A stretch of DNA of 64,000 nt from an uncultured Syntrophomonadaceae bacterium (GTDB taxonomy: Bacteria > Bacillota > Dethiobacteria > DTU022). Where the stretch lies: the NCBI GenBank assembly GCA_964463285.1, contig CAYXBB010000002.1:3628-67627 (forward strand), read 5' to 3'. Positions 5,120-42,850 of the stretch are shown here, piece by piece. The position numbers were made by a program, and so were the translations under genes. The notes beneath the pieces are model-generated. The model did not search any database and had not been told where the DNA came from. It saw nothing but the letters and a program-made list of their open reading frames with translations. Within the stretch, counting starts at the first letter, position 1. Each line of letters opens with the position of its first letter.

Positions 5120-5132
5120 CGGTTGATCCCCC

Positions 5133-6350: not shown

Positions 6351-6473
6351 TGTACCAAAAGATTTTTATACTTTAACCCGGCTCTATTTTACCACAAAAC
6401 CCTATTTTTACCCGAAAGCCGCTCAAAAAAACCACCTCGAAGGTGGTTTAACAACAAATCCAGCCGGGGAAGG

Positions 6474-9897: not shown

Positions 9898-11784
9898 TTA
9901 TCCCCCGCCGTGTAAGAAATCATAAACCCGGGTAGCCAGTTGTTCGCTAAACCCCGGTACCAATTTAATCTCCTCCAGGGAAGACTGCCGCAACTTGTCT
10001 ACGCTTCCAAAATAGCCGAGAAGGGTTATCCTTCGTTTGGGCCCGATACCCGGGATGTCCTCCAACCGGGAGTGCCGGCTCCGGGCCAGGCGACGGCGCT
10101 GGTGGTAAGCCAGGGCAAACCGGTGAGCCTCGTCCCGGATCCTCTGCAGCAACTGCAGCAGCTGCGAATGGGCCGGCAAAATAATCGGAGAGGCGGCTCC
10201 TTCCAAAAAAATATGTTCCGGGCCTTCGGCCAACGCCAGCAAGGGGAGTTCGAATTTCCCTGCCAGGTTTAGGGCCCGCCGAGCAGCGGTCAGCTGGCCT
10301 TTACCGCCATCAATCAATATCAAATCCGGTTCCGGCCAATCCTGACGGGGAAGGCGACGCTGCAGCACCTCCTGTATAGCGGCGTAATCATCACCGGGAG
10401 GTGTTTCGCGCAACAAGAACCGCCGGTAATTGTCGGTGCAGGGTAGAGCCTGTTCAAATACCACCATCACCCCCACCGTCTCCTCTCCCCGTAAATGGGA
10501 GATATCATAACCTTCAATTCGCTGAGGCACCTGCTTCAACCCCACCAGTCTTGACAGTTCCAGCAAGGGTTCCTCCTCTCGCCTCCGGGAGCGCAGGGCT
10601 TGTTCCTGCAAGGCCAGGCGGCCATTCCGGCCGGCCAGTTCCAGCAGGTCTTTCCGTTTCCCCCGGCGGGGGACCTTTAAAAAAACCTTGCCCTTCTTTT
10701 TTCGGCTTTGTAACCACTGCTGCAACAGTTCCGCCTCCTCGGGCAGGCAGGGAACGATAATTTCTACCGGTAAGCTCTCCACCCGACTGTAATAGGTTTT
10801 TATAAAGCCGGTTAGAATTTCCCGGTCTTCAAGGCCGACAGTTCCGGTTAGAGGAAAATGTTCCTGGCTTAACAGCTTGCCTTCCCTAATTTTAAACAGG
10901 TGAATTGCCGCTCGCTGTTCCTGCCTGACCAGGGCCAGCACATCCTGATCTAAACCCCTCGGTGTCAGCACTTTTTGTTCCTGGGTCACTACCTCCTTAA
11001 GCGCCAACAGCTGGTCCCGCAGCCGGGCCGCCTGTTCAAAGGCCTGTTGTTTTGAAGCCTCCTCCATTCGCCGGGTAAGATCGTTTTCCAGAGAGCGGAT
11101 CCTCCCTTCCAGGAATAGCACTGCCTGCTCCACCATCTGCCGGTATTCCTTGAAAGGAACCTGATCTTTCCCCCGACAGGGTGCCAGGCAGCGGTTCATC
11201 TGGTAGTTCAGGCAGGGACGCTTGGTAGAAGGATCCCCGGTAAGGGCCTGCCGACACCGTTTTAATGGGAAAATCCTGCTCAACAGATGCAGGGTATCGC
11301 GAACCGCCCCGGCCCTGGTAAAGGGTCCAAACCAGCGCTCTTTACCGGTGGTGGGACCGTAGTTTTTCTTTTGGGAAAGGCGCAGCATCTCCAGGCGTGG
11401 GTAGGGCTCTGCCGTAAGCAACAGATAGGGATAATCTTTGTCATCTTTTAAGTTTACGTTGTACCGCGGGCGATGTTTTTTGATCAGGTTGCACTCCAGC
11501 ACCAACGCTTCCGCCTCGGTGTCGGTTACCATATATTCAATATCGGTCATGTGGGATTGTAGCACTTGAATCCGCGGAGGCAGGCCCGCCTTGGCCAGAT
11601 AATACCGCACCCGCTGTCTGAGTGCTTTGGCCTTGCCCACATAGATAATCTGTTGCCGGGCATCCTTGATCAGGTATACCCCCGGAGAGCCCGGAAATCG
11701 CTTTACCTTTTCTTCCAGCTCTTCCAATACCTCGGCCATACCCGTCTCCTCTGTGTTAACCTTTTTCTTTTCCGGAGCCGGCAA
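9898..11784 (-). CDS. uvrC: Excinuclease ABC subunit C
   Basis: GIY-YIG motif (GVYLIKD..IIYVGKA..YY), UvrBC-interacting and C-terminal HhH; start probably internal Met near 11739 to avoid overlap with uvrA. Confidence 0.9.
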
Positions 11785-14629
11785 GGGCTAAACCTCCTTC
11801 CAGCACCTTCTTAAGCCATTTTCCGGTATAGGAGCCTTTTACTCGGGCTACCTGCTCAGGAGTCCCCTGGGCTACCACCTGTCCGCCCCCCTCCCCGCCC
11901 TCCGGTCCCAAATCGATCAGGTAATCGGCTCTTTTTAATACATCGGGGTTGTGCTCGATCACCAGCACGGTATTCCCGGCCCCGGTTAATCTATTTAAAA
12001 TAACCAGCAGTTTGTTGATATCCTCCAGATGGAGTCCGGTAGTAGGTTCATCCAAGATATAGAATGTGCGCCCCTGACTACGCCGGGAAAGTTCGGTAGC
12101 CAGTTTTACCCGCTGTGCTTCTCCGCCGGAAAGAGTGGTGGCCGGCTGGCCCAACCGTATATATCCCAATCCTACATCCTGCAAAGTTTGTAACTTGCGC
12201 ACAATCCGGGGAAAAGGTTCAAATAGCTCTACGGCTTCCGATACAGTCATATCCAGGATATCGGCAATATTTTTCCCTTTGTAATGTATTTCTAGAGTTT
12301 CCCGATTGTAGCGCTGTCCGCGGCAAACCTCGCAGGGAACATAGACATCGGGCAGAAAGTGCATTTCTATGCGCAATATGCCGTCTCCCCGGCAGGCTTC
12401 GCACCGGCCCCCTTTTACATTAAAGCTGAATCTTCCCGGGCGGTAACCCCGCTTACGGGATTCCACCAGCTGGGAGAAAAGTTCCCGGATCCCGTCAAAC
12501 AGCCCGGTGTAAGTAGCCGGATTGGAGCGGGGGGTTCTCCCGATAGGAGCTTGATCGATCACCACCACCTTGTCCAGATAGTTCAGCCCCTCGATCCGAT
12601 CATGATCCCCGGGCTGTTCCCGGGAGCGATAAAGGTGCCGAGACAGGGCCCGGGCCAAAATCTGGTTTACCAGGGTGCTTTTTCCGGACCCGGAAACCCC
12701 GGATACGCAGACGAATAGCCCCAAGGGTATCCCTACATCAATATTTTTTAAATTATGCTCGCGGGCACCCTTGATCCACAGCCAGCGTTCGTTGGGAGTT
12801 CGTCTTTGATCCGGAAGGGGAATAGACTTTCGTCCAGACAGGTAATCTCCGGTAACCGATCCCGGGGTGCTTATGATTTTCTCCAGGGTCCCCTGAGCTA
12901 CTATATTGCCACCCCGAGCGCCGGCACCGGGGCCGATATCCACTATATGATCCGCCCGCAGGATGGTCTCTAGATCATGTTCTACTACAATTACCGTGTT
13001 ACCCAGATCGCGTAAGGCCTCCAAAGTGTCCAGCAGGCGAGCACTATCCCGCAAATGGAGGCCGATGCTGGGTTCATCCAGGATATAGATCACCCCGGTC
13101 AAACCGGAACCGATCTGGGTCGCCAGCCGAATCCGTTGGGCCTCCCCTCCGGAGAGGGTTGCCGCCGGGCGATCCAGGGTCAGGTAACCCAGCCCGACAT
13201 TGATCAAGAACTGCAGGCGGGCCCGGATCTCTTTTAACACCTGGTGGGCGATCTTCTGCTCCCGTTCGGTCAGTGAGAGTTCTATTAAACGCCGCTCCGC
13301 TTCCCCCACGGTTAATGCCGATGTCTGGGATATGTTGTACCCCCCCACCAACACCGACAGGCTAGACTCCTTTAAGCGGCGTCCCCCACAGGCCGGACAG
13401 GAGCAATCAACCTGGTAACGGGCCAACTCCTGACGTACCTCTTCAGACTCGGTGGTCTCAAGGCGGCGCTCAAGCAGCTTGATGATTCCCGGGAAGGGCT
13501 TGCGGTAATTGCGCACCCGGCCGAAGCTGTTAACATAACGGAATCTTATCGGCTGGGAAGATCCATAAAATACAATCTGTTTATGTTCCGGAGGCAGATC
13601 TAGGAACCGGAGATCAAGATCTATTCCGAAGGCATCGGCAGCCGCCTCCAGAAACTGCCGGTAATAAAGGGTGCTTCCTTTATAAGGGTGAATGGCCCCC
13701 TCGGCGATGGTCAGCTCGGGATAAGGTACAATCAGTTCCGGCGAAAATTCAGCCCGCTTACCAAGCCCACTGCATTCCGGGCAGGCGCCGTAAGGGCTGT
13801 TAAAAGAAAAAACCCGGGGGCTTATCTCCTCGAAACTGAATCCGCAGCGGGGACAGGAAAAAAGCTCGCTGAACAAGTGCTCTTCTCCGTCAACCTCCTG
13901 GACCAGAGCCAGCCCCTCACCTAATTTCAGGGTAATCTCCAGGGAATCGGCCAATCGGGTTTGAATCCCTTCCCGGACCACCAGCCGATCCACCAGCACT
14001 TCGATGGAATGCTTTTTCATTTTGTCCAAAGTGATCTGCTCTTCCAGCTCATAGATCTGCCCGTCTACCCGAACCCTTACATAACCCCGACGGCGCATCT
14101 CCTCCAATAGGCGAAGATGTTCCCCTTTGCGCCCCCTGACCAGGGGAGCCATAACCTGCAAACGAGATCCTTCCGGCAAAGCCATGATTTGATCCACCAT
14201 CTGCTGAACAGTCTGCCGGTCAATAGGTTGACGGCAGTGAGGGCAGTAGGGTCTGCCGATCCGGGCATACAGCAACCGCAGGTAATCATAAATCTCGGTA
14301 ACTGTACCTACCGTGGATCGGGGATTGCGGGAGCTGCTTTTCTGATCTATGGAGATGGCTGGAGAAAGTCCCTCAATATGATCCAGATCCGGCTTATCCA
14401 TCTGTCCCAAAAACTGGCGGGCGTAGGCGGACAAAGACTCCACATACCTACGCTGTCCCTCAGCATAGATAGTATCAAAAGCCAGAGAGGATTTCCCCGA
14501 ACCGCTCAGCCCGGTAAATACAATAAGCTTGTTTCGGGGAAGGGTTAAATTGATGTTTTTTAAATTGTGTTCCCTGGCCCCACGTATTTTAATCTCTCCG
14601 GAGATCATCTTCCTCACCTTGAATTTCAA
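11756..14629 (-). CDS. uvrA: Excinuclease ABC subunit A
   Basis: 957 aa, two ABC ATPase modules, zinc fingers, [11 protein letters not shown]-terminal signature. Confidence 0.95.
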
Positions 14630-14662
14630 TTATTTTCAACAGGCGGGCGATGTCGTCCGCCC

Positions 14663-16732
14663 CTACAACATTTTCCGCAGATCCCTCCCCTTTGGTAAAG
14701 GAGGACCGGGAAGGATTTTCCCCTGGCCCCGGGAGGCGCTGGTCTGTTCCAGATCAAATATAATATCTCTTAACCCGGCTGCTCTTTCAAATTCCAGATC
14801 CCGGGCTGCCTGTTCCATTTCTCTTCGCAATCGGGCAATCGTTTTTTTTCGCTGAGAGGGTTCAAGATCAACCAGTTTTTCCGGACCGTATTCACCGCTT
14901 TCCTCTGCTGTCACGGTAGCCTCGATCAGGCTGCGCACCGGCTTGACCACGCTGCGGGGGGTAATCTGGTAAGTGCGGTTGTGGGCCATCTGTTTTTGAC
15001 GGCGCCGCTCTGTCTCTTCTAGGGCCCGGCGCATTGAATCGGTTATTATGTCGGCATACATGATCACCCGGCCGGAAATATTGCGGGCAGTCCGGCCGAT
15101 AGTTTGAATCAGTGAACGCTCCGATCTCAAAAAACCTTCTTTGTCCGCATCAAAAATGGCTACCAGGGCCACTTCGGGGAGATCCAGTCCTTCCCTAAGC
15201 AGGTTGATCCCGATCAGAACGTCAAATTCTCCTAAACGTAAACCCCGAATAATAGACATCCGTTCCAGGGCGTCGATATCGGAATGCATGTAGCGTACCC
15301 TTAAGCCCATTTCGCGATAATATTCGGTGAGGTCTTCGGCCATCCGCTTGGTTAAGGTGGTTACCAGCACCCGCTGGTTGGATTTGACTACTGACCGAAT
15401 TTCGCCATATAGATCATCTACCTGTCCACCCGCCGGTCGAACAAAAACCCGGGGATCCACCAGGCCGGTAGGACGGATGATCTGCTCAACCACCGCCTGG
15501 CTTTGCTCCAGTTCCCAGGGGCCGGGGGTGGCAGAAAGAAAAATGGCCTGTTTTATCAGCTGTTCAAATTCCTTGAATATAAGCGGCCGGTTGTCCAGCG
15601 CCGAGGGCAGACGGAACCCATGTTCCACCAAGGTGCTTTTACGTGAGTAGTCGCCGCGGTACATACCGTTTATTTGGGGAATAGTAATGTGGGATTCATC
15701 CACTATCAACAGAAAATCCTCCGGGAAATAATCGAGCAGGGTATAGGGCCGGCTTCCTTCCGGGCGCCGGTCAAAATGCCGGGAATAATTTTCGATTCCG
15801 GAACAGAAGCCCACCTCGGTAAGCATCTCCAGATCATAACGGGTACGTTGTTCAAGCCTCTGGGCCTCCAGCAGCCGCCCCTGTTGCCGCAGCGCTGAAA
15901 GACACTGTTTTAGTTCCTGCTGGATATCCGCTACCGCCAGGGGCAACAGCCCGGGAGAGGTAACATAGTGGGTAGCCGGAAAAACAGCGGCATGGGTGCG
16001 TTCTCCAATTACCCGGCAGGTCAGGGGATCTATCTCCCGAATCCGTTCAATCTCATCGCCAAACATCTCCACCCGCAGGGCCGCCCCGGTAAATGAGGCC
16101 GGGAAAATTTCAATCAGCTCTCCCCGGGCCCGGAAAGTTCCCCGTCTGAAATCAATTTCATTGCGCTGGTATTGAATGGATACCAGCCGGGAAAGAATTT
16201 CGTCCCGGCTAATCTCCGCTCCCACACGCAGTGAAAGCAGCTGTTCACCATACTCCCGGGGAGACCCCAATCCATAAATGCAGGACACGCTGGCTACGAT
16301 GATTACATCACGCCGTTCCAGCAGGGCACTGGTAGCAGAGTGGCGCAATTTGTCTATCTCGTCGTTAATAGAAGAATCCTTCTCAATATAGGTATCGGTC
16401 TGGGGGAGATAGGCCTCCGGCTGATAGTAATCATAATAGCTGATAAAAAATTCCACGGCATTGTCGGGAAAAAATTCTTTAAACTCGCTACAAAGCTGGG
16501 CAGCCAGGGTCTTGTTGGGGGCCATCACCAGGGTGGGACGCTGAATCTGTTGAATGATATTGGCCATGGTAAATGTTTTTCCGGAACCGGTTACCCCCAG
16601 CAGGGTTTGGTAACGAAAACCCTTGTTCAGTCCCTTTACCAGGCTTTGAATGGCCCGTGGCTGATCTCCGGCAGGAGTATAGTCGGTTACCAGTTTAAAT
16701 GGTTTTCCCGCAGGCATCTGTCGCACCTTCAT
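14663..16732 (-). CDS. uvrB: Excinuclease ABC subunit B
   Basis: 689 aa, helicase motifs [13 protein letters not shown]-terminal UVR domain. Confidence 0.95.
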
Positions 16733-23869: not shown

Positions 23870-24862
23870 CTATTCCTTTTTGATCCAGGGGATCATTGAG
23901 CGCAGTTCTTGACCAACCTGTTCGAGAGAATGCTCCTTTTCCAGTTCCCGGAGGCGGTTAAACACCGGTCGGCCCACCTGGTTCTCCACAATCCATTCTC
24001 GGGCAAATTCCCCGCTCTGGATTTCGGCCAAAATATCGGCCATATTTTCTCTGACCTGCTCGTCGATCACTCGCGGACCCCGGGTAAGATCACCATATTC
24101 AGCGGTATCACTAACCGAGTAACGCATCCGGGCCAGGCCTCCCTCATAAATGAGATCCACGATCAATTTCAGCTCATGCAGACATTCAAAATAGGCAACG
24201 TGGGGCTGGTAACCGGCCTCTACCAGGGTTTCATAAGCAGCCTTGATCAAGGAAGTAACTCCTCCGCACAAGATGACCTGTTCCCCAAACAGGTCGCTCT
24301 CAGTTTCCTCCTGGAAACTGGTTTCAATTACTCCTGCCCGGGTAGATCCTATGGCCCGGGCATAAGCCAAGGCTAAGGAATGCGCCCGGCCGGTATAATC
24401 CTGATGCACCGCCAGCAGCGCGGGCACACCCTGGCCGCTTACATAAGCCCGCCTTAACAGATGGCCGGGGCTTTTGGGGGCCACCATAAATACATCCACA
24501 TCTGCCGGGGGGATAATTTGACGGTAAAGGATGTTAAAACCGTGCGAGAAAGCTAATGCTTTCCCTTCTTTTAGCTGGGGCAGCACTTGGCGGTAAACCT
24601 CCGGCTGCACCCCGTCATCCACCAGGAACATGATGATATCCGCCTCTGAGGCCGCTTCCACCAGCCCGGCCACCTTTAGCCCATCAGCCCGTGCTTTTTC
24701 CTTGCTTTTGCTGCCCTCGTACAACCCTACCACCACCGAAACCCCGCTGTCCTGCAGGTTTTGAGCCTGGGAATGACCCTGGCTGCCATATCCCAGGACG
24801 GCTACTGTCTTGCCCTCCAACAGTTTTAAATCTGCATCCTGATCGTAATAAACCTTGACCAT
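23870..24862 (-). CDS. ilvC: Ketol-acid reductoisomerase
   Basis: 330 aa, [20 protein letters not shown] Rossmann/KARI signature. Confidence 0.92.
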
Positions 24863-24923
24863 AATTCTTTACCTCCTAAATAAATAAATTGGTTATTGAG
24901 CTGATACCGACCCGGTTCGATTA

Positions 24924-25097
24924 CCCTTCCAGGCGGGGATGGAACCCCGCCCCTACAACACGTTTCAGGTTGATACCGCCTTCCACTTCAGGGGCCCCTT
25001 CCGAGCGGGGATGGAGCACTGGTGGCGCTGATCGACTTCGGTAAGGAGTGAGCGGCCCCTTCCGAGCGGGGATGGAGCCCCGCCCCTACAACACGTT
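24924..25097. repeat. Cluster of about 41-bp direct repeats with embedded GCGGGG-N6-CCCCGC hairpins (two full copies 24924-24964 and 25057-25097, one 5' half-copy 24996-25017)
   Basis: cccttccRRgcggggatggaRccccgcccctacaacacgtt present twice with 3 mismatches; truncated middle copy; flanking gataccg also repeated. Confidence 0.7.
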
Positions 25098-25114
25098 ATC
25101 TCCCCGGCCCCGGT

Positions 25115-26050
25115 TCAGATACCCTTATTTCTCACCATCCCCTCGGCGACATCCGCCACCCGGGAGGGGGTTAAACCGTAATGCGCCAGCAGGGCCTCTG
25201 GAGAGCCCGACTGGCCAAAACAATCTTCCATTCCCAATCGTTTGAGGGGAGTGGGCTGATATTCCCCCAGCACCTCGGCCACTGCACTGCCCAGGCCCCC
25301 GATAATGCTATGTTCCTCCAGGGTTATCACCGCCCCGGTTTGGCCTGCTTCTTCAATTATAATCTCCTTGTCCAGGGGCTTTATAGTCGATAAGTGGATT
25401 AAGGAAGGGCAAATTTTCCGGGAGAGCAATATTTCTACAGCCCGGAGGGTTACCGCAGTCATAGAACCGGTGGAAACCAGGCAGATATCGCTACCGCGCT
25501 TTAGTAAAATACCCCGACCAATCTGAAACGGCGTGCCTGCTGGTAGTACCTCGGGAATTTTGGGTCTTCCCAGGCGCAGGTAGACCGGCCCCTGCCAATC
25601 AGCAGCCGCCAGAGTGGCCCGGAAGGCCTCCGGGGCATCGGCCGGTGCAATAACAGTCATCCCCGGTAAGGAGCGCATTAAAGATATATCTTCCAATGCC
25701 TGATGGGAGGCACCATCTTCGCCCACTGTAATCCCGGAATGGCTGCCGGCAATCTTCACATTTAGCCCGGAATAAGCCACTGAATTGCGAATTTGATCGT
25801 AGCTCCGGCCGGTAGCAAATACAGCAAAGGTGCTGGCAAAGGGAATTTTGCCGGCGGCAGCCAGACCGGCAGCGGTACCGATTAGATCCGCTTCCGCCAC
25901 TCCTAAATTAAAGAAGCGATCTGGAAAGGCCTCTGCAAATTTGGCAGAATAAGTTGATTTGGAGAGATCGGCATCCAGGGCCACTACCTGGGGATTAGTC
26001 CGGCCCAGTTGCAGCAAGGCCTCACCGTAGGCTTCTCTGGTTGCCTTCAA
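25115..26050 (-). CDS. Transketolase, C-terminal (pyrimidine-binding/C-terminal domain) subunit
   Basis: 311 aa, transketolase Pyr and C-terminal domains; 4-nt overlap with upstream N-terminal subunit gene. Confidence 0.85.
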   Translation of the reverse strand: MKATREAYGEALLQLGRTNPQVVALDADLSKSTYSAKFAEAFPDRFFNLGVAEADLIGTAAGLAAAGKIPFASTFAVFATGRSYDQIRNSVAYSGLNVKIAGSHSGITVGEDGASHQALEDISLMRSLPGMTVIAPADAPEAFRATLAAADWQGPVYLRLGRPKIPEVLPAGTPFQIGRGILLKRGSDICLVSTGSMTAVTLRAVEILLSRKICPSLIHLSTIKPLDKEIIIEEAGQTGAVITLEEHSIIGGLGSAVAEVLGEYQPTPLKRLGMEDCFGQSGSPEALLAHYGLTPSRVADVAEGMVRNKGI

Positions 26051-26889
26051 TTGCTATCGGCCTCCTCCCCTTTCAGCCCGGCCAGGGCCTGTTCCAGCTG
26101 TCGGCGGCTGGGAGCGGCTCCGTGCCATTCTATCCGGTTCTCCATAAACGACACCCCTTTCCCTTTTACAGTTTCTGCGATAATCATGGTGGGTTGCCCC
26201 CGGCAAGCACGGGCTTCCTCCGCCGCCGCTATAATTTCCGGAAAGCTATGCCCGTTGATTGCCAGCACGTTCCACCCGAAAGCCTTCCATTTTTCCGTCA
26301 GCGGCTCCAAATTTTTTATCTGGTCGACGGGCCCGTCAATTTGTAGCCGGTTGTGATCCAAAAAGGCGGTCAAATTATCCAGCCGGTAATGAAAGGAGGT
26401 CATGGCTGCCTCCCAGATCTGCCCTTCCTGACATTCCCCGTCCCCCAGAATTACGTAGACCCTCCAGGGAGATCCGTCTAACCTGGCGGCCAAAGCCATC
26501 CCGTTGGCCACGGAGAGTCCCTGCCCCAGGGATCCGGTGGAAATCTCCACCCCAGGCAGTTGATTGCGGGCCGGGTGCCCTTGCAGGGGGGAACCCAACC
26601 GGCGCAGACTGGAAAGGGTGCTTCGGGGAAAAAATCCCCGGGAGGCCAGGGCGGCGTAAAGAACCGGGGCGGCGTGTCCCTTAGAAAGGATCAGACGATC
26701 CCTATCTGCCGCCTCCGGACGGTGCGGATCAATGTTCATGATTTTAAAATAAAGGGCGGTGATAATTTCTACCAGGGAAAGTGAACCTCCCGGGTGACCC
26801 GATCCGGCAGCAGCAATCATGGACAGGATATCCATCCGAAGGATTCGGGCCAGTTCTTGTAAACGGGTTACTTCTTTCGCAGCCAACAT
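26047..26889 (-). CDS. Transketolase, N-terminal thiamine-diphosphate-binding subunit
   Basis: 280 aa, GSGHPGGSLS and GDG..EG TPP-binding motifs. Confidence 0.85.
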   Translation of the reverse strand: MLAAKEVTRLQELARILRMDILSMIAAAGSGHPGGSLSLVEIITALYFKIMNIDPHRPEAADRDRLILSKGHAAPVLYAALASRGFFPRSTLSSLRRLGSPLQGHPARNQLPGVEISTGSLGQGLSVANGMALAARLDGSPWRVYVILGDGECQEGQIWEAAMTSFHYRLDNLTAFLDHNRLQIDGPVDQIKNLEPLTEKWKAFGWNVLAINGHSFPEIIAAAEEARACRGQPTMIIAETVKGKGVSFMENRIEWHGAAPSRRQLEQALAGLKGEEADSN

Positions 26890-27809: not shown

Positions 27810-28917
27810 TTACCGGCGACCCATTTTCCGGCGCAGGTAGGAATCTATAAACAGGTCCAAATCGCCATCCATTACCGCCTCTACCTGTCCCATCTCTACA
27901 CCGGTGCGATGATCCTTCACCAGGGTAAAGGGATGAAAAACATAAGAGCGAATCTGGCTTCCCCAGGCGATATCTTTTTGCGGGCCCCGCAAGTTCTTTA
28001 TCTCCTGATCCAGCTCCAGCCGGTGAAGTTCCGCCAGCCGGGCCTGCAAGATCCGCAGTGCCTGTCGGCGGTTGCTATGCTGGGAACGATCCTTCTGGCA
28101 AGTGGCAGATATACCGGTGGGCAGATGGATAACCCGCACCGCCGAATCAGTCTTGTTTACATGCTGTCCCCCCGCTCCGCTGGAGCGGAACGTCTCCACC
28201 TTCAAATCGTCGGGATCCAACTCATACTCTTCCTCTTCCACCTCAGGAATTACATCTACCGATGAAAAAGAAGTATGACGCCGGTGGGCGGTATCGAAAG
28301 GAGAGATCCGCACCATGCGGTGCACCCCTTTTTCTGATTTAAGAAGCCCGTAAGCGCGGTAGCCTCGGATAATAACGGTAGCGCTTTTGATCCCCGCTTC
28401 ATCATCTGTTAGCAACTCTGCCAGTTCCACCCCAAATCCCTTGTTTTCAGCCCACCGGCAATACATTCTAAGCAGCATCTCCGCCCAGTCCTGCGATTCC
28501 AATCCCCCCGCCCCCGGATGAATTGAGAGAATGGCATCACTGGAATCGTGTTCGCCTCCAAACAGGGTTTCCATCTCCAGCCTGTCCAGCTGCTTTATAA
28601 TTAAATTTAGCTTGTCGCCGGCCTCTAGGCGAGCTTCCTCGCGCCCGAACTGTTCCTCTTCAGCCAGTTCCAGCAAGATCTCCACCTCTTCCAGAAGCCG
28701 GTTAAGTTCGGACAACGGGCGGACCTGTTCGGTAAGGCTGCCAATCTCTATTAACAGTTGTTTGGCCCGGGGGGCATCCTCCCAAAACCCTGGGAGCGAC
28801 GCTTCTTTCTCCAGCCGGCATAGGCCGGCTAACTTCTGTTCATATTCAAAGGGAAGCCCTCATCTCTTGAAAACGACGGGTTTGCAGTTCCCACTCTTTC
28901 CGATATTCCCTGGTCAC
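27810..28917 (-). CDS. prfB: Peptide chain release factor 2, requires programmed +1 ribosomal frameshift at CTT TGA A (28851-28845)
   Basis: Frame 0 GTG at 28917 encodes MTREYRKEWELQTRRFQEMRASL then in-frame TGA; +1 frame continues EYEQKLAGLCRLEKEAS...SPF..GGQHVN..; SD-like AGGG precedes the slippery CTT TGA. Confidence 0.85.
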
Positions 28918-32099: not shown

Positions 32100-32888
32100 C
32101 TAGTTGATCGGAACACAAAACTTAATAGTTGTTCCGGTTACCGGGCTATCGGCAGTTAAAATTGCACAACCTATCCCATAAGTTTCTTCCAATCTTTTTT
32201 CAGTTATAACATTTTCAACATCGCCTACCGCCAAAATTTTTCCGCCGCTCATCAGGGCTACTTTGCCCGAGAGCAAAAGAGCATGATTAGGAAGATGAGT
32301 TGTCATTAATACAGTCAATCCCTTTTGTGATAATTTGCTGATTATCTTGAGAACAAGTGCTTGGTTTTTGAAATCAAGATGGGAGCAGGGTTCGTCAAGC
32401 AAAATTACATCCGGAGTTTGGGTCAGCGTCCTGGCTATAAGAATTAATTGCCTTTCACCACCGCTTATCTTTGTATAGGGTTTGTCTTTGAGATGAAGCA
32501 TGCCGACCATTTCAAGCGATTGCTCGGCAATATTAACATCTTTGGGCGAAGGCGATTCAAAAAAACCAAGGTAGGGTGCTCTGCCCATGCTTACCACTTC
32601 CAGAACTGAAAAAGGGAAAGGAGCACTGTGTTCCTGAAAAACAAAACCCATCCTTCGTGCCACATCAACCACACTCATATTATAAAGATCAAGCTTATCC
32701 AGAAAAACATGGCCCCTTGCAAGCCGCAAACTACCGTTCAGGCAGCGCAGTAAAGTTGTTTTACCACAACCATTGGCACCCAGAATGCATAGTATTTCAC
32801 CCGGCAAAACATCCAGGGTAATATCACTAAATATTCTTTTATCCCCATAACTAAATGTACCATTTCTAAGGGAAAGAAGCGCTCCCAT
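32100..32888 (-). CDS. ABC transporter ATP-binding protein (FecE/FepC/BtuD-type)
   Basis: 262 aa, Walker A GANGCGKTT, signature SGGERQ; AT-rich gene. Confidence 0.8.
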   Translation of the reverse strand: MGALLSLRNGTFSYGDKRIFSDITLDVLPGEILCILGANGCGKTTLLRCLNGSLRLARGHVFLDKLDLYNMSVVDVARRMGFVFQEHSAPFPFSVLEVVSMGRAPYLGFFESPSPKDVNIAEQSLEMVGMLHLKDKPYTKISGGERQLILIARTLTQTPDVILLDEPCSHLDFKNQALVLKIISKLSQKGLTVLMTTHLPNHALLLSGKVALMSGGKILAVGDVENVITEKRLEETYGIGCAILTADSPVTGTTIKFCVPIN

Positions 32889-33910
32889 TATTGCCAGCCC
32901 CCCTTGGTTTTGCGTATCAAATAGGCAAAAAAAGGTGCTCCGATAAGGGCGGTTAGTATCCCAAGTGGAATTTCTATTGAAACCGAAGCACGGGCTAAAA
33001 CATCAATAATAAGAAGGTAGGTAGCCCCTATAGAAATGCATGCCGGTATCAGCACTCTGTGATCCGGGCCAACCAGCATCCGCCCAATATGAGGAATCAC
33101 TAACCCAACCCACCCAATCATCCCACTGACTGAAACCGCTGAAGCGGTCATTATAGTAGCGCATAATATGATAAATGCCTTTAAAGATTCTGTTTTTATC
33201 CCCAAAGAACGAGCTTCTTCATCTCCCATTGCCAAAATATTTATCCGCCAACGCACCAACAAAAGACCAACCATTCCACAAATAATCCCTGGTAAAGCAG
33301 TAATAACATTTTTAATTGAAGCAGAGTTAAGGCTACCCATAAGCCAGAAGGTAATTGCAGGAAGTTTTTCGTATGGATCGGCCAAATATTTCGTTAACGA
33401 TACCAGGGCAGAAAAAAAAGCCGAGGTAACAACTCCTGAAAGAACAAGCATAATTACGGGGGTGGTTTTATATATACGGCTTATAGAATAGGTTACGATC
33501 ATTCCTATGATACCAAAACCCAATGCGAAGGCCTGGATCATCCCACGGTTGCCGGACAAAAGAATTGCCAGGGCTGCCCCGAAACTGGCCGCCGAAGACA
33601 CCCCTAATATATCCGGGCTGACCAATGGATTTCGGAACATACCTTGAAATGCCGCACCGCTAACAGAAAGAGCCGCCCCAACCAGAGCAGCCAAAAGAGC
33701 GCGGGGTATCCTAATCTGAAATATAACCGTTTCTGTCATGGTTGGCCAATTAGGGGCAAATTTGATTGAGGGAAATATTTTAGTAATTATAATCTGAATC
33801 ACCGTTTGCATAGAAATAGCATATCGGCCTAAAAAAAGGGTGAAAAGAAAAACAAAAATAGGTAAAATAATCAAAGCTACGATCTTTTTTTTAGACATTA
33901 GATCCTCCAA
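32888..33910 (-). CDS. FecCD-family ABC transporter permease
   Basis: 340 aa, about 9-10 TM, FecCD/BtuC-like. Confidence 0.8.
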   Translation of the reverse strand: MEDLMSKKKIVALIILPIFVFLFTLFLGRYAISMQTVIQIIITKIFPSIKFAPNWPTMTETVIFQIRIPRALLAALVGAALSVSGAAFQGMFRNPLVSPDILGVSSAASFGAALAILLSGNRGMIQAFALGFGIIGMIVTYSISRIYKTTPVIMLVLSGVVTSAFFSALVSLTKYLADPYEKLPAITFWLMGSLNSASIKNVITALPGIICGMVGLLLVRWRINILAMGDEEARSLGIKTESLKAFIILCATIMTASAVSVSGMIGWVGLVIPHIGRMLVGPDHRVLIPACISIGATYLLIIDVLARASVSIEIPLGILTALIGAPFFAYLIRKTKGGWQ

Positions 33911-34086
33911 CAGATCATCCTCTGCTGCTTTACAGGGCTAGATTTTTATACCAATGCAGATTTCGCTAGTAGTTGCCGTATTGCGGCTATAAGCTTAATA
34001 CAACACTGGGAGCAGTAAAACTATTATTACTACCCCCAGCACCTTAACCCCGTTCACATTAGACAACCGCCTGCAATGCTATTCGC

Positions 34087-34911
34087 TTAACCCTTTTTCC
34101 ACCATAGGAAAGCCCAACGACAGTTCAATTCCATATTAAGAAAGCCATTGTTGCGAACAAAATATTTAAGCAGATGGTTTTCTAAACGATTCTTTTGCCC
34201 ATCGTTTTCCGGTCTGATCCTCCATACCCAGTCATCCATGGCAATATCTATGTTCTGATAATGTAACTTCTCAACATAATTTACATATTCGACATTCGCA
34301 AAAATTCCTTCTTGGCAAAGCATATTATAAACATAGATATAATCAGGTGCAGAAAGGTACTTTTTCCCGATATTTCCGTAGGTCAATCTAAAAAAATTCT
34401 CATATTCATCACCATTTGCCCACATAACGATATACACATATTTTGTTGCCGCGTTATTCATCAATTTAATCGCTTGTAACGGATCGCGTTCGGGAAAAGC
34501 ACGAGAACAAATAACTACATCATGTGGGTTTACATCTTTTCCAACTATTACATCTTCCCAATTTTTTTTTAGGCATGTTATATTGTTTAAACCCTCTGAT
34601 TTAGCGTTTTTTGCCACATATTGCAACATCTCCCCTGACAAATCCAGGGCAGTAACAGCCTTTACCCGCTTTGCCAAGGGAATGGCTAGAGTCCCGGGGC
34701 CGCAACCGATATCCAACACGGTGGAATCGGGTGTAATGTCGACTTTTTCAAGCACCTCATCGATATATTCTTTGTTTTTTATGTTTCGATCAAAGGCTTC
34801 AGCCCTTTTGTCCCACCATTGTTCACCATCCTTTGTCCAGGAGGATAGGAGCATTTGTTCTTCCCATATTTTCTTCCAATCTATTGAACTGAGGTTTTCT
34901 TGTATTGCCAT
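34087..34911 (-). CDS. Class I SAM-dependent methyltransferase
   Basis: 274 aa, motif I VLDIGCGPGTLA, motif post-I ALDLS. Confidence 0.7.
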   Translation of the reverse strand: MAIQENLSSIDWKKIWEEQMLLSSWTKDGEQWWDKRAEAFDRNIKNKEYIDEVLEKVDITPDSTVLDIGCGPGTLAIPLAKRVKAVTALDLSGEMLQYVAKNAKSEGLNNITCLKKNWEDVIVGKDVNPHDVVICSRAFPERDPLQAIKLMNNAATKYVYIVMWANGDEYENFFRLTYGNIGKKYLSAPDYIYVYNMLCQEGIFANVEYVNYVEKLHYQNIDIAMDDWVWRIRPENDGQKNRLENHLLKYFVRNNGFLNMELNCRWAFLWWKKG

Positions 34912-34914
34912 TTT

Positions 34915-35988
34915 TTATTCTCCCAATAGATCTTTAATTGTTGAATCAGACATATTTTGATTGTAGAATGTCGAATAAAAATCCCTGATTTCTTGTTCCA
35001 TCGTAAAATCAACTTGATCCGGGTGCAATTTGTATATTGTCCACTGCATGCCCAGAATAGATTCGGGAACACCAACATACCAGCAGAATATATAGCCGGG
35101 CATTTGAAAAATTTGCTTGTTTTTGACAGCCTCTATATCAGCGAAGCGTGGGTCAGTAAGCAACTCATCTTTAGTGTCACTGGAACAATAGGTATTAATA
35201 AAAATAACATCCGGGTTCCAATTTAATAATTGTTCTGCGGTAATCTCGGGATATAATTCGCCGACTGTACTGCTGCTACCATCAATTTCTGCAGCAACAT
35301 TTATTCCTCCACCAACCCCCAAAATAAAATCTTCAATTGATGCAGCAGTACATGTTTTTAATATGTCGTGGCTGGTCATATAAACACGGCATTTTTCATT
35401 TTCAGGAATTTGCGAAGCCATATCTTCAATGTTGTTCATCTTGTCTTTGTAGTAAGAAACAAGTTCCTGTGCACGTGCATCTTTGCCCAACACTTTTCCC
35501 ATAAGCTGCATAGATTCGTTGAGATCTTCGATAGTATTCACATCGACATATACTACAGGACAATACTCTTCAATACCCGCAAATCTTTCCCGGTGTATTT
35601 TCCCGGCAAAAACAACATCCGGTTCCAGTTTCAACAATTCTTCTTTGTTATCACCTTCAATATCTCCAAAGCACGGCAAATCTTTAATCCTTGGATCCAT
35701 ACTATGTAAAACTTCACTATTAACATTTAGCATATCTATTCCCACAAAATGCTCAGTTCCATCAATGGCAATAACCATTGCAGTTGATGGTGGAAAAACG
35801 GTGACTACCCTTTCTACCTTGGCTGGAATTTCTACAGTTCTGCCGGCCATATCAACTACTGTTATGGTTTCGTCCCCATCTTCTAGTGCTCCACCGCCTC
35901 CCTGCTCATTGGAACACCCGGCTAAAACGCCTGCAAGCAAGGTGACAAGTAACAGAAAAACCATTGCCTTGTAAATGTTTTTCTTCAT
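34915..35988 (-). CDS. ABC transporter substrate-binding lipoprotein (PF01497-like siderophore/heme/corrinoid-type PBP)
   Basis: 357 aa, lipoprotein signal LLAGCSNE, periplasmic binding protein type III fold hallmarks. Confidence 0.75.
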   Translation of the reverse strand: MKKNIYKAMVFLLLVTLLAGVLAGCSNEQGGGGALEDGDETITVVDMAGRTVEIPAKVERVVTVFPPSTAMVIAIDGTEHFVGIDMLNVNSEVLHSMDPRIKDLPCFGDIEGDNKEELLKLEPDVVFAGKIHRERFAGIEEYCPVVYVDVNTIEDLNESMQLMGKVLGKDARAQELVSYYKDKMNNIEDMASQIPENEKCRVYMTSHDILKTCTAASIEDFILGVGGGINVAAEIDGSSSTVGELYPEITAEQLLNWNPDVIFINTYCSSDTKDELLTDPRFADIEAVKNKQIFQMPGYIFCWYVGVPESILGMQWTIYKLHPDQVDFTMEQEIRDFYSTFYNQNMSDSTIKDLLGE

Positions 35989-36118
35989 CTTAATTTTTGT
36001 TGTTAGTTAATTTGCTGTTCAAAAACCCGGTTTTTTCAATTTTATTGGTTATCCCCCCCCTATGGCAGTGGTTGTCCGGGCCAAGACAGCATCCACATCT
36101 TATTGCTTTATTTTAAAT

Positions 36119-36275
36119 AAAAAAAGGCAATTCCTGGAAGGGAAGTGCCATTTTTTGCAGCATTCTCCTTTCCAAGTTATGGGAGGCAATACCATTTCTA
36201 GTATTACCCTTTGGTTATACCTCGGTTACAAGCCATGCCTTCCGGTTTAGGCGCGTAACTCGGAGCGCTTTTAAT
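36119..36275 (-). promoter_or_regulatory. Structured 5' leader with intrinsic terminator upstream of the ABC-transporter operon; candidate Moco/Tuco-type riboswitch (unverified)
   Basis: Minus strand: GCGCTCCGAG ... GGTAATACtagaaatgGTATTGCCTCCC ATAACTT GGAAAGGAG ... GGCACTTCCcttccaGGAATTGCC TTTTTTT; terminator hairpin plus U7 at 36150-36119, about 130 nt before the start codon. Confidence 0.35.
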
Positions 36276-36468
36276 ATTCAGCTTTGTGTTTACGCTATCA
36301 TGGGTCAATATTTCTGTCAACACAGGGCAAGGTTTTTTTCGCCATCAAAATTAAAATCTGTTGTAAAAAAATCTTTATCATTACCCGGGGATAATCAAAC
36401 AACAAACAAGTGTTTTATTTTAACCCAGCCAAAAAACTAAAGGTCTACAGGCACTGGTTTGGGTTCGG

Positions 36469-37590
36469 CTAAACCTGGATATTGCCGGCAGCCAGTTCCT
36501 CGGCAATCGTCCACAGGCTGCCCGATACCAGGGAATGCCCCCCTAACATTACCGGGATCGGGCAGGAGACAGCCTCCCGGGTAAAACTTCTTAACCAGGG
36601 ATGATCAATCTCCTGGTACCTGCCCAAATCCGAAAGAAATCGTTCCCGATCCGAAAAGCTGTAACGGTAATGGGCCATCAGCACCCGAGTATCAATGAAT
36701 GCCGCCCCGACTATCCGGGAAAGGTAGTCGAAGAAGTTAGGTATCCCCGCATGGTCAATAAGGCAGCCCATTAAAGAGACTACCTGCTTTGCCTTCACCC
36801 GGCCCAGGGCCTTCATACCTCGTTCCTCGGAAAACACCCGCAGCCGGATTTTTAAGCTGGAATTAAGACGTTCAATTGCCGGGGCTCCTACCCGACCAAT
36901 AAGTGCTACCTCCTGGTAGTAGCCACTTAAAACCTGTTTGGCCCGCCGCAACCGGGAATAATCCCAGTCCAAGCCCGACAGGCAGGCCCTGGTTTGGGGA
37001 CCGGCAAAGGGGCTATCCCCCAGCACCAGGCCGTCAGCAGGAGTATCCAGATCAAATAACAAGCCCGAAGTAAAGGGCATCAATGCAAGTTCCAGTCCTA
37101 GCTGATCACGAAGGGTAGTTGCCAGGGTATTATCCATAGCCGGTAAGTCTATTCCGGAAAAATCCCCGGTTACCGTAAAAGCTACCAGGTCCGCAGACTG
37201 AACATTGTTGGCATAAAGCAGGCGAGTGCTGTTCAACAGGCGCCGGCAGATTGAAGACACCTCATCCTCCCTTACCAGGGGGCAGCCGGCGCCGCTAAAA
37301 TAAAACACTTTGGATAGGCGATGTTCCAGGATCAACCTTTTTAGTTCCGTTCCGAAATTAAATGAACCCGGAGAAAGGTGATTGAGAATTACCGTGGCTC
37401 CCTTCGCCCGGGCCAGTTCCGCCAGTTGGCGGTCATTGGTAGCCAGGTAAATCATACCGATCTCGGTTACCCGGTTGAGTTTATCCAGGTTGTCCAGCAG
37501 GGCGGCGGTACGTATCGAAGTAAGTTCCAACTCTACCGGGCTGGCCGGAGAGGTCCCTTCAAATATTACTGCGCTAACCTGTTCTAACAT
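36469..37590 (-). CDS. Conserved hypothetical protein (373 aa), unassigned
   Basis: Long ORF with high coding GC unlike adjacent AT-rich island; no motif I can assign. Confidence 0.4.
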   Translation of the reverse strand: MLEQVSAVIFEGTSPASPVELELTSIRTAALLDNLDKLNRVTEIGMIYLATNDRQLAELARAKGATVILNHLSPGSFNFGTELKRLILEHRLSKVFYFSGAGCPLVREDEVSSICRRLLNSTRLLYANNVQSADLVAFTVTGDFSGIDLPAMDNTLATTLRDQLGLELALMPFTSGLLFDLDTPADGLVLGDSPFAGPQTRACLSGLDWDYSRLRRAKQVLSGYYQEVALIGRVGAPAIERLNSSLKIRLRVFSEERGMKALGRVKAKQVVSLMGCLIDHAGIPNFFDYLSRIVGAAFIDTRVLMAHYRYSFSDRERFLSDLGRYQEIDHPWLRSFTREAVSCPIPVMLGGHSLVSGSLWTIAEELAAGNIQV

Positions 37591-42494: not shown

Positions 42495-42640
42495 AAAAAC
42501 AAAAAACCTCTTTAAAGATTGAGGCCTGAAATAGAACCTCTCATCTCCCGGAGCAGATCACTCTCCCCGCAGGAATTGGCACCGCAATCTAAGATCCGGT
42601 TGCCGGGATTCATCGGGCCCGTCCCTCCTCCACTCAGGAT
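42495..42640 (-). promoter_or_regulatory. SAM-I (S-box) riboswitch with terminator, leader of metK
   Basis: Minus strand CTCTTATCCTGAGTGGAGGAGGGACGGGCCCGATGAATCCCGGCAACC...GGTGCCAATTCCTGC...AGAGTGA matches S-box consensus; followed by hairpin and TTTTTTGTTTTTT. Confidence 0.85.
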
Positions 42641-42850
42641 AAGAGCTAAATTATAGAAATTATTAACATCAAAATACACTAAAATAATCCGGGTGTCAAA
42701 TAATAGTGAAGGAGGACCAGGCATTCCGTAAATGCCCTGTGATTAATTGTCGGCTTGGCGAATAAATATATCACGGGTGATTCCTTTCTTAAATATTTCA
42801 GTTATAAATATAGGCAGGAATTGCTAAAAATCAAATTGGAGGTGTTCTAT

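Follow-up and report, generated by a model that had tools for sequence, protein, structure and literature searches.

What are the short, hairpin-bearing direct repeats that lie between a split transketolase and ilvC in this uncultured Firmicute, and how did they come to be there? A first-pass annotation of the window, that is, of the whole 64-kb stretch of DNA analysed here, had left three readings side by side: a REP/MITE-like element, a decayed CRISPR remnant and a structured attenuator. The evidence points with good confidence to a head-to-tail cluster of a GTAG-tagged REP, a reading that concerns the identity and the origin of the repeats and not their effect on mRNA. The element is small and probably mobile, and it arrived recently and was then multiplied in situ; such repeats are rather common in bacteria, if unusual in a Firmicute. 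The next paragraphs discuss the cluster, its relatives in other genomes and metagenomes, and the rival explanations; the coordinates are collected in Table 1.

Table 1. Positions of the repeats and of the neighbouring genes in the 64-kb window.
Feature	Position	Strand	Remarks
ilvC, ketol-acid reductoisomerase	23870..24862	-	downstream of the cluster; Pfam KARI_N + KARI_C
ilvC ribosome-binding site	24872..24877	-	AGGAGG, read from the sequence; downstream of the cluster
Expanded tktC-ilvC intergenic spacer	24863..25114	-	252 nt; holds the cluster
41-nt full copies	24924-24964, 25057-25097		found by repeat search
28-nt three-copy family D1	24918-24945, 24990-25017, 25051-25078		spacing 72 + 61 nt
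REP copy 1, ilvC-proximal	24929..24960	-	TGTT-GTAG-GGGCGGGG-TTCCAT-CCCCGCCT; within 41-mer 24924-24964; end 66 nt upstream of the ilvC ATG
Partial copy 2, 22-28 nt	24990..25017	-	GCTCCATCCCCGCTCGGAAGGGGCCCCT = loop + 3' arm + flank; between the two full copies
REP copy 3, tktC-proximal	25062..25093	-	TGTT-GTAG-GGGCGGGG-CTCCAT-CCCCGCTC; within 41-mer 25057-25097; start 21 nt past the tktC stop codon
Transketolase C-terminal subunit (tktC)	25115..26050	-	upstream of the cluster; Pfam Transket_pyr + Transketolase_C
Split transketolase, other part	26047-26889	-
Second locus, between uvrB and uvrA	14643..14670	-	TGTT-GTAG-GGGCGGACGACATCGCCCGCC; exact GTAGGGGCG head

The descriptive part of the first-pass annotation held up well. 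The two near-identical 41-bp copies and the partial third were recovered (the full copies are 93% identical), and neither the 22-mer shared by all three copies nor the 32-mer shared by both full copies occurs at any other site in the 64-kb window or in any of 100 dinucleotide shuffles (0/100). The perfect GCGGGG-N6-CCCCGC hairpin attributed to each full copy is present, with a stem of 7 bp in copy 1 (GGCGGGG/CCCCGCC) and of 6 bp in copy 3 (GCGGGG/CCCCGC), both closing 6-nt loops, and Pfam confirmed the placement between transketolase and ilvC on the minus strand. As RNA, both hairpins reach 8 pairs by means of G-U pairing, with folding energies of -17.6 kcal/mol for copy 1 and -16.0 kcal/mol for copy 3, while in the relatives the stem of the orthologous single copy is perfect over 8 bp (-20.1 kcal/mol). 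What comes after the hairpins is CGGAAGGG or TGGAAGGG, not a U/T-run, and a terminator scan of the spacer was empty, in agreement with the statement that they are not classic terminators. The cluster is extragenic, just 3' of tktC, and both its neighbours lie on the same strand.

The biological unit, however, is not the 41-mer. On the gene (minus) strand the full copies read TGTT-GTAG-GGGCGGGG-(Y)TCCAT-CCCCGC, a GTAG tag followed by a GC stem of 7-8 bp, and the functional unit consists of (TGTT)GTAG abutting an 8-bp G+C stem, GGGCGGGG / CCCCGCCC, with a 6-nt loop. This stem-loop with its tag forms a mobile core of about 27-31 nt, and the AACG on one side of it and the GGAAGGG on the other are local flank that was co-amplified. 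The copies differ in ways that bear on their order of descent. The TTCCAT loop and the right flank of copy 1 are the same as in the single copy of relatives with 89% identical TktC, for which reason copy 1 is probably the ancestral one. Copy 2 is 96% identical over 28 nt to the corresponding stretch of copy 3, with which, and not with copy 1, it has the derived CTCCAT loop and CGCTC in common; it lacks the GTAG head and the 5' arm, so that its hairpin cannot form. The degenerate unit of 62-71 bp proposed earlier found weak support, because units and flanks align with one another and with the single-copy flank of the relative, whereas Tandem Repeats Finder, run over 24700-25300, reported no tandem repeat, the units being too diverged outside their cores. 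By the same alignments, the inter-copy segments at 25018-25056 and 24965-24989 are co-amplified flank and not unique spacers. The arrangement is not an artefact of a single assembly, because in an independent Logan assembly contig (L008) copies 3 and 2 and the greater part of copy 1 are identical at every base; two further contigs of the same strain end inside the repeats.

The history of the locus can be followed in related genomes, arranged by the identity of their TktC. Here the tktC-ilvC spacer, with its three copies, measures 252 nt. At 89% identity it has one copy and a length of 105-106 nt, in seven contigs from independent samples, and without the element it measures 58, 35 and 23 nt at 83%, 81% and 71% identity, respectively. 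At the equivalent place in the 83% relatives there is a weak GGCGGGATTGTCCCCGG motif. This series from none to one to three copies indicates that the element was inserted and then amplified locally together with its flank. As judged from the aligned spacers, the insertion took place in the common ancestor of this organism and the 89% relatives, and the tandem duplication of the element with its right-hand flank in this lineage. One element, together with about 35 nt of further sequence, entered a former junction of 23-35 nt just downstream of tktC; element and right-hand flank were subsequently duplicated twice in tandem, and the head and the 5' arm were lost from one of the copies. Slippage during replication, or unequal recombination among the copies, may account for the duplications. 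In the extra 35 nt of the insert of the 89% relatives (…GGTAGCCGCTAC), a degenerate inverted partner is suggestive by eye and was judged unconvincing.

Further support for a mobile element was provided by other loci of the clade. The GTAG tag of the copy between uvrB and uvrA supplies, with its TAG, the stop codon of uvrB, and this is found in this lineage only: the copy is missing from the 20-nt uvrB-uvrA junction of relatives with 90% and 87% identical UvrB, whose UvrB ends, in the alignment, in a tail 10 residues shorter and of a different sequence. An 89% relative has, in turn, a different GTAG REP, GTAGGGGCGAAC-TGC-GTTCGCCC, in its M23-ctpB spacer, which is missing from this window; the 14.4-kb contig of that relative thus carries two REP loci, one of them unshared. 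Exact GTAGGGGCG heads occur three times in the 64 kb, where 0.5 are expected from a uniform 9-mer frequency, and all three are on the gene strand; they belong to copies 1 and 3 and to the uvrB copy, each with GTAG directly before the stem. Window censuses of general hairpins and of GTAG followed by any perfect stem revealed no further family members, and heads with one mismatch occur in the window at chance level and without hairpins. A scan of a genome collection with the 22-mer CCCTTCCNNGCGGGGATGGANC returned five matches in unrelated high-GC taxa, none of them running into a hairpin; these were set aside as chance matches, the host species being absent from the collection scanned. Between genomes with 89-90% identity in the flanking proteins, three insertion sites are not the same.

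The same element recurs in metagenomes. The pattern TGTTGTAGGGGCGGGG-N4-8-CCCCGC was matched by at least 120 loci, against about 10 or fewer expected by chance according to our own composition estimate, in at least 73 distinct flank contexts with a GC content of 42-72%, and the identical TTCCAT loop was present in at least five of the contexts. Among the loci listed, GTAGGGGCG heads number 228 against 4.3 expected, a perfect stem follows 157 of the 178 unique heads, and inverted pairs, 28-134 nt apart, number 39 and direct neighbours 43. The loci examined in detail are singletons, inverted pairs or irregular head-to-tail clusters, with no regularly spaced arrays. Open-frame coverage of the metagenome copies is 66% against a background of 86%, a modest depletion that is uninformative as a test of extragenic position because the DNA is high in GC. 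A covariance model (R1) trained on metagenome copies alone found exactly the three intact copies of the window, namely copy 3 (29.4 bits, E = 1.8e-5), copy 1 (28.7 bits, E = 2.7e-5) and the uvrB copy (23.5 bits, E = 5.7e-4), the next score being 9.1 bits. Mobility is indicated by the empty, single and triple states of the tktC-ilvC spacer, by presence and absence at uvrB and M23-ctpB, and by the many metagenome contexts. A bolder and quite tentative proposal, towards which we lean less than away from it, is that these copies make up an undescribed GTAG REP family, with the head GTAGGGGCG often placed after TGTT, which would be near-identical across bacteria of very different G+C, active in a Firmicute clade and spreading horizontally.

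The GTAG-tagged REP superfamily was defined by Di Nocera, De Gregorio and Rocco in 2013 (PMC3733652), who reported that unidirectional GTAG REPs lie near the 3' end of the upstream ORF, to which the tag often gives a TAG stop; direct orientation is reported to be rare among GTAG REPs. The elements described here are likewise extragenic and placed just after the upstream gene of a unidirectional pair, with a TAG stop in the case of uvrB, and they form clusters through tandem reiteration with flanking DNA, as in the superfamily. The closest likeness is to the "group 3" GTAG REPs, represented by the 23-nt REP of Stenotrophomonas maltophilia, in which GTAG is likewise set directly against a G+C stem of 8 perfect pairs closed by a short loop, a target that is bound and cleaved on ssDNA by group-3 TnpA-REP (PMC8266576). 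They differ from the superfamily in their host, an uncultured Firmicute, in their low density of two loci in 64 kb, in the head-to-tail arrangement of the copies, in an extra conserved TGTT before GTAG, and in the recurrence of the core across metagenomes of very different G+C. GTAG REPs from Firmicutes are not reported in the GTAG-REP literature cited here, GTAGGGGC is not in the supplements of the 2013 study (PMC3733652), and the literal sequence, when looked for in the literature, led to nothing but papers on eukaryotic Sp1/GC boxes.

REPs of this kind are linked to RAYTs, and a comparable link was met in one metagenome locus (L141). It holds 13 head-to-tail copies with co-amplified flanks of 170-174 nt, some of the copies truncated, and these lie on both sides of an ORF of 185 aa that has HUH and Tyr motifs. 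The best NCBIfam match of the ORF is NF047646, "REP-associated tyrosine transposase" (E = 5.7e-14), which at 52 bits is under the curated cut-off of 80, and its Pfam match (E = 0.002) is also below cut-off. On the strength of NCBIfam and Pfam, the product can be called RAYT-like. The ORF was reached through a weak tblastn match, the probe being an E. coli RayT-like sequence; a regular expression for the RAYT "Y..NP" motif had no match, and a PDB sequence search with the ORF returned nothing. By analogy with characterised REPs, dispersal would most likely be catalysed on single-stranded DNA by such an HUH tyrosine transposase, an enzyme that recognises the hairpin together with GTAG as a "guide".

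Other systems share part of this picture. REPIN-RAYT systems (Bertels and Rainey 2011, PMC3116915; Nunvar et al. 2010, PMC2817692) resemble it in the metagenomic inverted pairs at 28-134 nt and in the one metagenome cluster around a RAYT-like Y1 transposase gene; in contrast to them, no recognisable inverted partner lies at tktC-ilvC and no RAYT is tied to this genome. The sub-terminal hairpins of IS200/IS605 elements are also accompanied by a 5' guide tetranucleotide and recognised on ssDNA by an HUH Y1 enzyme, whereas the present element is a single hairpin of about 30 nt with no transposase enclosed between two ends. In E. coli, BIMEs (e.g., malE-malF) likewise place several REP hairpins between two genes, which are co-transcribed there, but BIMEs alternate in orientation and bind IHF or gyrase, while here all copies are direct and one is truncated.

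Several findings do not sit easily with a REP. Classical REP families have more than 100 copies per genome, and here two loci with three intact copies were counted in 64 kb. No RAYT gene was found in the window, either among the ORFs put through Pfam or by a match to the probe. All copies at the locus are direct, with no recognisable inverted partner of the REPIN type, and the segment inserted in the 89% relatives, at about 70 nt, is roughly twice the length of a REP.

These difficulties give some room to another origin, namely that the hairpin was formed de novo downstream of tktC, for example to stabilise the 3' end or to act as a weak terminator, and was tandemly duplicated, its likeness to GTAG REPs being convergent. 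G-runs pairing with C-runs evolve easily, the weak motif of the 83% relatives could be a precursor, and local amplification requires no transposase; the count of two loci in 64 kb and the lack of a RAYT match in the window also fit this reading. We nevertheless consider this unlikely: the 31-nt core is identical in unrelated metagenome flanks, and the identity extends to the TTCCAT loop and the unpaired TGTTGTAG head, which are positions that convergence is not expected to fix. The same 14-nt head is also present at uvrB in this lineage only, a third variant occupies another spacer of the 89% relative, and the model trained on foreign copies finds exactly these sites. A conventional MITE, i.e., a deletion derivative of a DDE-transposase IS with terminal inverted repeats and a target-site duplication, would equally be small, non-coding and present or absent among close relatives. 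Comparison of the empty (L022/L151) with the filled (L009) site, however, revealed neither an obvious target-site duplication nor any terminal inverted repeats other than the hairpin, and the conserved sub-terminal hairpin with its 5' tetranucleotide is instead the signature of single-strand HUH/Y1 elements, which makes a MITE very improbable. Of the "REP/MITE-like" element of the first-pass annotation, the REP half is thus retained, on the basis of GTAG with a stem-loop, the empty sites, the uvrB copy and the metagenome contexts, and the MITE half is given up for want of terminal inverted repeats and target-site duplications.

The two remaining readings concern the cluster as a whole. A decayed or orphan CRISPR mini-array, with 41-nt repeats and spacers of 31 nt and 20-39 nt, is suggested by three direct copies at 61-72-nt spacing, roughly the 60-70-nt periodicity that CRISPR arrays would share, by the hairpin inside the repeat, and by a weak match of Rfam CRISPR-DR37 to part of copy 1 and the ilvC-side flank; this match, at 16.3 bits against a gathering score of 40 and E = 6.7, is noise. 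The middle copy is truncated and the spacing irregular, the supposed spacers can be aligned with one another and with the single-copy relatives' flank, and at this conserved housekeeping junction relatives carry a single copy or no copy at all. In addition, Pfam identified no Cas domain in 35 ORFs of the window (19 from 263 to 31942, five large ones from 32100 to 37590 and 11 beyond 37 kb, a set that does not extend to 14 large ORFs past 38 kb), and elsewhere, in the loci examined in detail, the family forms no regular arrays, so that the CRISPR reading is effectively refuted. A cis-regulatory leader of ilvC, an attenuator or T-box-like device in which alternative pairings of the arms would set read-through according to branched-chain amino acids, has in its favour the position directly upstream of a branched-chain amino-acid gene and the extra 3' arm of the partial copy, for which the 5' arm of copy 1 would in principle be an available pairing partner. 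We regard it as highly improbable, and the structured attenuator of the earlier annotation with it. In relatives the ancestral junction is 23-35 nt long with the ribosome-binding site alone, which indicates that ilvC is normally expressed without a leader, and the same element is present at uvrB. Moreover, the spacer has no U-tract terminator, Rfam at gathering and at E <= 10 found no T-box, riboswitch or other leader over the locus (and, at gathering, nothing relevant over 20 metagenome loci), and the RNA fold of the whole spacer (255 nt, -90 kcal/mol) is not better than that of shuffles (z = +1.15), so that no larger structured RNA is indicated.

If the cluster is one of GTAG REPs, its consequences for the neighbouring genes can be sketched by comparison with E. 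coli. The cluster lies in a co-directional string of genes and is therefore probably transcribed, in which case the transcript would contain, between the coding regions of tkt and ilvC, two stable hairpins of -16 to -18 kcal/mol. BIME clusters of E. coli stabilise the upstream message and modulate downstream expression. By analogy with these, the likely effects would be shielding of the upstream tkt message from 3' exonucleases, reduced read-through into ilvC, or both. The AGGAGG-N8-10-start context is found in all relatives, with or without the element, and the intact ribosome-binding site would keep the translation of ilvC independent. A neutral or selfish status of the element is equally compatible with the data.

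Recognition of the "mini-array" as a REP-type cluster, and not as a CRISPR or an ilvC leader, is in itself routine and avoids a mis-annotation. The series from empty to single to tandem triple, with its co-amplified flanks and truncated leftover copies, offers a clean natural record of the birth and growth of a REP cluster, and the presence of 0, 1 or 3 hairpins between tkt and ilvC amounts to a natural experiment on how intercistronic REPs affect operon expression in a Gram-positive RNA-decay background. One and the same GTAG hairpin, about 30 nt long, is met in a Firmicute, across many unrelated metagenomic backgrounds and on 98 viral contigs; this breadth, if confirmed on whole genomes, would bear on the host range and the inheritance of REP/RAYT systems, which a preprint describes, for REPIN-RAYT systems, as mostly vertical (bioRxiv 10.1101/2022.05.22.493013). 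Under the bolder proposal given above, it would mean a REP/RAYT system spreading horizontally outside the Gram-negative groups in which REPs have been studied. As a further likeness to IS200/IS605 elements, the GTAG strand in the window is the lagging-strand template, to judge from a + strand GC skew of -0.105 and from the minus-strand orientation of nearly all genes.

The split transketolase genes (tktN and tktC) and ilvC are neighbours, and the repeats therefore lie inside a 252-nt intercistronic spacer, where a repeat search returned two 41-nt copies with 93% identity and a 28-nt family of three, spaced 72 and 61 nt from start to start. The sequence of this region matches the description in the first-pass annotation, both in the 41-bp copies with a partial third copy and in their position. 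Neither the 22-mer present in each of the three copies nor the 32-mer that the full copies share has another occurrence in the window, and each gave 0 hits in 100 shuffles. The arrangement is reproduced base for base in L008, a Logan assembly contig from the same strain; two further contigs of this strain stop within the repeats, as expected because short repeats break de Bruijn assembly. In contig L007 of the strain (3387-3445, run SRR8925751), which stops directly past the repeat, the tktC-proximal copy carries a G-to-A change, GTTGTAG to GTTATAG, that abolishes the GTAG tag and is a strain-level polymorphism within the element.

Positions of the repeats, covariance-model matches, genes and riboswitches in the window
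Feature	Position	Strand	Score
uvrA	11756-14629	-	
REP copy between uvrB and uvrA, covariance-model match	14643-14670	-	23.5 bits
GTAGGGGCG head of this copy	14658-14666	gene strand	
uvrB	14663-16732	-	
ilvC	23870-24862	-	
28-nt repeats	24918-24945, 24990-25017, 25051-25078		
41-nt repeats	24924-24964, 25057-25097		
Covariance-model match	24929-24960		28.7 bits
Covariance-model match	25062-25093		29.4 bits
tktC	25115-26050	-	
tktN	26047-26889	-	
Release-factor ORF	27810-28715	-	
Operon below the Moco riboswitch	32100-35988		
Moco riboswitch	36149-36277	-	64.6 bits
ORF below the SAM riboswitch	41278-42462		
SAM (S-box) riboswitch	42538-42645	-	80.9 bits

On the minus (gene) strand a full copy reads AACG-TGTT-GTAG-GGGCGGGG-(C/T)TCCAT-CCCCGC(TC/CT)-GGAAGGG, and its decisive feature is a G+C stem directly abutted by the tetranucleotide GTAG. 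The GTAG-tagged REP superfamily comprises 24 families with 6-13-bp stems and extends over 8 phyla, with more than 80 species represented (Di Nocera et al., PMC3733652), and the group-3 TnpA-REP binds and cleaves single-stranded REPs with GTAG and a perfect 8-bp stem (Corneloup et al., PMC8266576). In that system GTAG plays a role similar to that of the guide tetranucleotide at IS200/IS605 ends, and stem mismatches impair cleavage (Corneloup et al., PMC8266576). The window element fits these REPs in every anatomical feature, and it is very probably a REP-type element with a GTAG tag that has been amplified in tandem in the tktC-ilvC spacer. Of the REP/MITE-like option proposed earlier, it is the REP form that is borne out, by the tag and stem, the insertion and the dispersed copies.

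The history of the junction was read from the closest homologues found in a TktC search, around each of which the DNA was fetched and compared. The gene order secA-prfB-yitT-tktN-tktC-ilvC-ftsE-ftsX-M23…uvrB is kept throughout these relatives, and the tktC-ilvC spacer measures 23, 35 and 58 nt, with no REP copy, where TktC is 71%, 81% and 83% identical, 105-106 nt with one copy at 89% (seven contigs from independent samples), and 252 nt with two full copies and one partial in the window. In the 89% relatives the single copy has the sequence TGA-ACCGGGGCC-TGTTGTAGGGGCGGGGTTCCATCCCCGCCCGGAAGGG-CGCC…, and about 35 nt arrived with the original insertion besides the REP. Its TTCCAT loop and right-hand flank are common to copy 1 (ilvC-proximal), while copies 2 (middle) and 3 (tktC-proximal) have derived changes in common, namely a CTCCAT loop, CGCTC and 28 nt at 96% identity. 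Because of these derived changes, and because the inter-copy segments align mutually and with the relatives' right flank, the cluster can be said to have been born by tandem duplication of element and flank in 61-72-nt units, with one copy later headless. What the aligned junctions document is an insertion into a formerly tight junction, followed by local amplification together with the flank. The degenerate unit of about 62-71 bp noted earlier is weakly supported by these homologous segments; TRF detects no tandem repeat at the cluster, since the flanks have diverged.

The hairpins of the two full copies have RNA energies of -16.0 and -17.6 kcal/mol; copy 2 is reduced to the loop, 3' arm and flank and is unable to fold. 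Where the 89% relative has a perfect 8-bp stem, the full copies have small stem defects that are G-U pairs in RNA, which is compatible with an RNA function or with simple decay.

Two further options of the first-pass annotation, a decayed CRISPR and a structured attenuator, were rejected. Against a CRISPR remnant stand the homology of the would-be spacers to one another and to the relatives' flank, the single copy in the 89% relatives, and a CRISPR-DR37 score of only 16.3 bits versus a gathering score of 40; no Cas domain was found by Pfam in 35 window ORFs, a set that leaves out 14 large ORFs beyond 38 kb. An ilvC attenuator would call on the spacer as a folded leader; the spacer has a fold no more stable than those of shuffled sequences (z = +1.15) and matches no Rfam family (best E = 1.9-6.7); the ribosome-binding site of ilvC is present in every state, and the ancestral junction has little else. 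An intrinsic terminator was likewise rejected, for no T-run follows the hairpins, as had been remarked, and a terminator scan of the spacer is empty.

The REP-type element belongs to a dispersed family and is not unique to this spacer. In the window there are three exact occurrences of the 9-mer GTAGGGGCG versus 0.5 expected at uniform frequency; two are the full copies, and the third, with TGTT before it and a hairpin after it, lies between uvrB and uvrA, where the TAG of the tag is the uvrB stop codon. Relatives with UvrB 90% and 87% identical have a 20-nt junction without the element, and by alignment the C-terminal tail of UvrB is 10 residues longer in the window and unrelated in sequence; the element occupies this second site in this lineage only. 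REP insertions are notably frequent in DNA synthesis and repair genes, including uvrA and uvrB (Di Nocera et al., PMC3733652). Conversely, the M23-ctpB spacer of the 89% relative holds a different GTAG REP, GTAGGGGCGAAC-TGC-GTTCGCCC, absent from the window, so that three sites differ in occupancy between genomes with about 89-90% identity in the flanking proteins. Metagenome locus L030 contains an identical core, and just past its M23 peptidase gene the 71% relative has a perfect 12-bp hairpin with a GCAG-type head (GCAGGGGCGGTCC…); the coordinates for these hairpins of the relatives are L149:45-73 (-) and L026:15048-15081 (+). With two loci per 64 kb in the window and two per 14.4 kb of the 89% relative, a few-Mb genome could hold about a hundred copies, an extrapolation from density and not a measurement. 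A pattern scan of a genome collection, evidently without this species, gave five matches, all chance.

In metagenomes, TGTTGTAGGGGCGGGG-N4-8-CCCCGC is found at 120 loci or more, versus a composition estimate of about 10 or fewer by chance. The 119 listed matches with both flanks represent 73 distinct contexts, with unrelated flanks, locus G+C of 42-72% and sharp similarity boundaries, starting at TGTTGTAG and ending just past the stem; the TTCCAT loop of the window is exact in 5 contexts among the matches listed. In 567 kb of listed loci there are 228 GTAGGGGCG heads versus 4.3 expected, and a perfect stem directly follows 157 of the 178 unique ones. The head is fixed and the inner stem variable, stems being mostly 8-10 bp and loops 2-6 nt; neighbouring copies in these loci form 43 direct pairs and two kinds of inverted pair, 39 with GTAG outside (28-134 nt apart) and 7 with GTAG inside. 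A covariance model built from 31 metagenome copies only, applied to the entire window with its filters disabled, gave exactly three significant matches (next best, 9.1 bits). In sequence and structure the window element is a member of a GTAG-hairpin family that is widely dispersed. Of modest interest are how broadly near-identical copies occur in metagenomes and viral contigs, the clean empty/single/triple series, and the Firmicute host. Among named homologues of the flanking genes the nearest carry a Firmicutes/Bacillota label, and Firmicutes are unmentioned in the REP/RAYT literature examined.

A GTAGGGGCGGGG-N2-8-CCCCGCCC core is present in 98 stretches of IMG/VR viral contigs (L152-L231 and further loci), several with 2-4 copies; these may be host DNA next to a prophage, genuine phage genomes or contigs wrongly classed as viral. 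Eighteen metagenome loci (L031, L036, L040, L041, L051, L055, L057, L075-77, L081, L083, L089, L090, L095, L104, L106, L145), many labelled human gut, have one identical flank (…ggcgagggccctgaaaggggacgtaccccg); mostly they have 63-71% G+C, two have 53-56%, and one is on a 2.98-Mb contig. They look like a single REP-rich organism recurring across unrelated samples, which may be a reagent or assembly contaminant.

A larger version of the window cluster exists in contig L141 (near-duplicate L087), with 13 head-to-tail GTAGGGGCGGGGCTTGCCCCGCCC copies over 2 kb (4700-6600), co-amplified flanks of 170-174 nt and truncated copies. It encloses a 185-aa ORF (5111-5668, minus strand) with HUH (NHLHGV) and tyrosine (RYISENP) motifs, for which NCBIfam gives 'REP-associated tyrosine transposase' as the best match (E = 5.7e-14; its 52 bits fall short of the equivalog cut-off, 80) and which matches Pfam Y1_Tnp with E = 0.002. 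Copies 5307-5356 and 5355-5404 fall within a low-complexity insert of this RAYT-like ORF, which appears to have REP-derived sequence inside. In the window, a RAYT probe had no match and the same 35 ORFs (again without the 14 beyond 38 kb) have no RAYT domain by Pfam.

A RAYT would disperse the element by acting on the lagging-strand template, and slippage or unequal exchange between copies could then amplify it. The + strand GC skew (-0.105 over the whole window) and the near-uniform gene orientation (44 of 49 large non-overlapping ORFs on the minus strand) place the window on a single replichore, with minus as the leading strand and the gene (GTAG) strand as lagging-strand template, as holds for all three intact REP copies. 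REP/BIME clusters in E. coli operons protect mRNA from 3' exonucleases and/or lower read-through; by analogy, the transcribed hairpins might shield the tkt message from such exonucleases and/or cut read-through into ilvC.

Elsewhere in the window, the SAM riboswitch is immediately upstream of an ORF that by position putatively corresponds to the S-adenosylmethionine synthetase gene of syntenic relatives. The molybdenum/tungsten cofactor (Moco) riboswitch is upstream of an operon for a periplasmic binding protein, a methyltransferase, a FecCD permease and an ABC ATPase. The release-factor ORF begins at PCRF domain position 44, and among relatives the gene is called with 298 residues in some cases and 344-345 in others, in keeping with the programmed +1 frameshift for which prfB (RF2) is well known.
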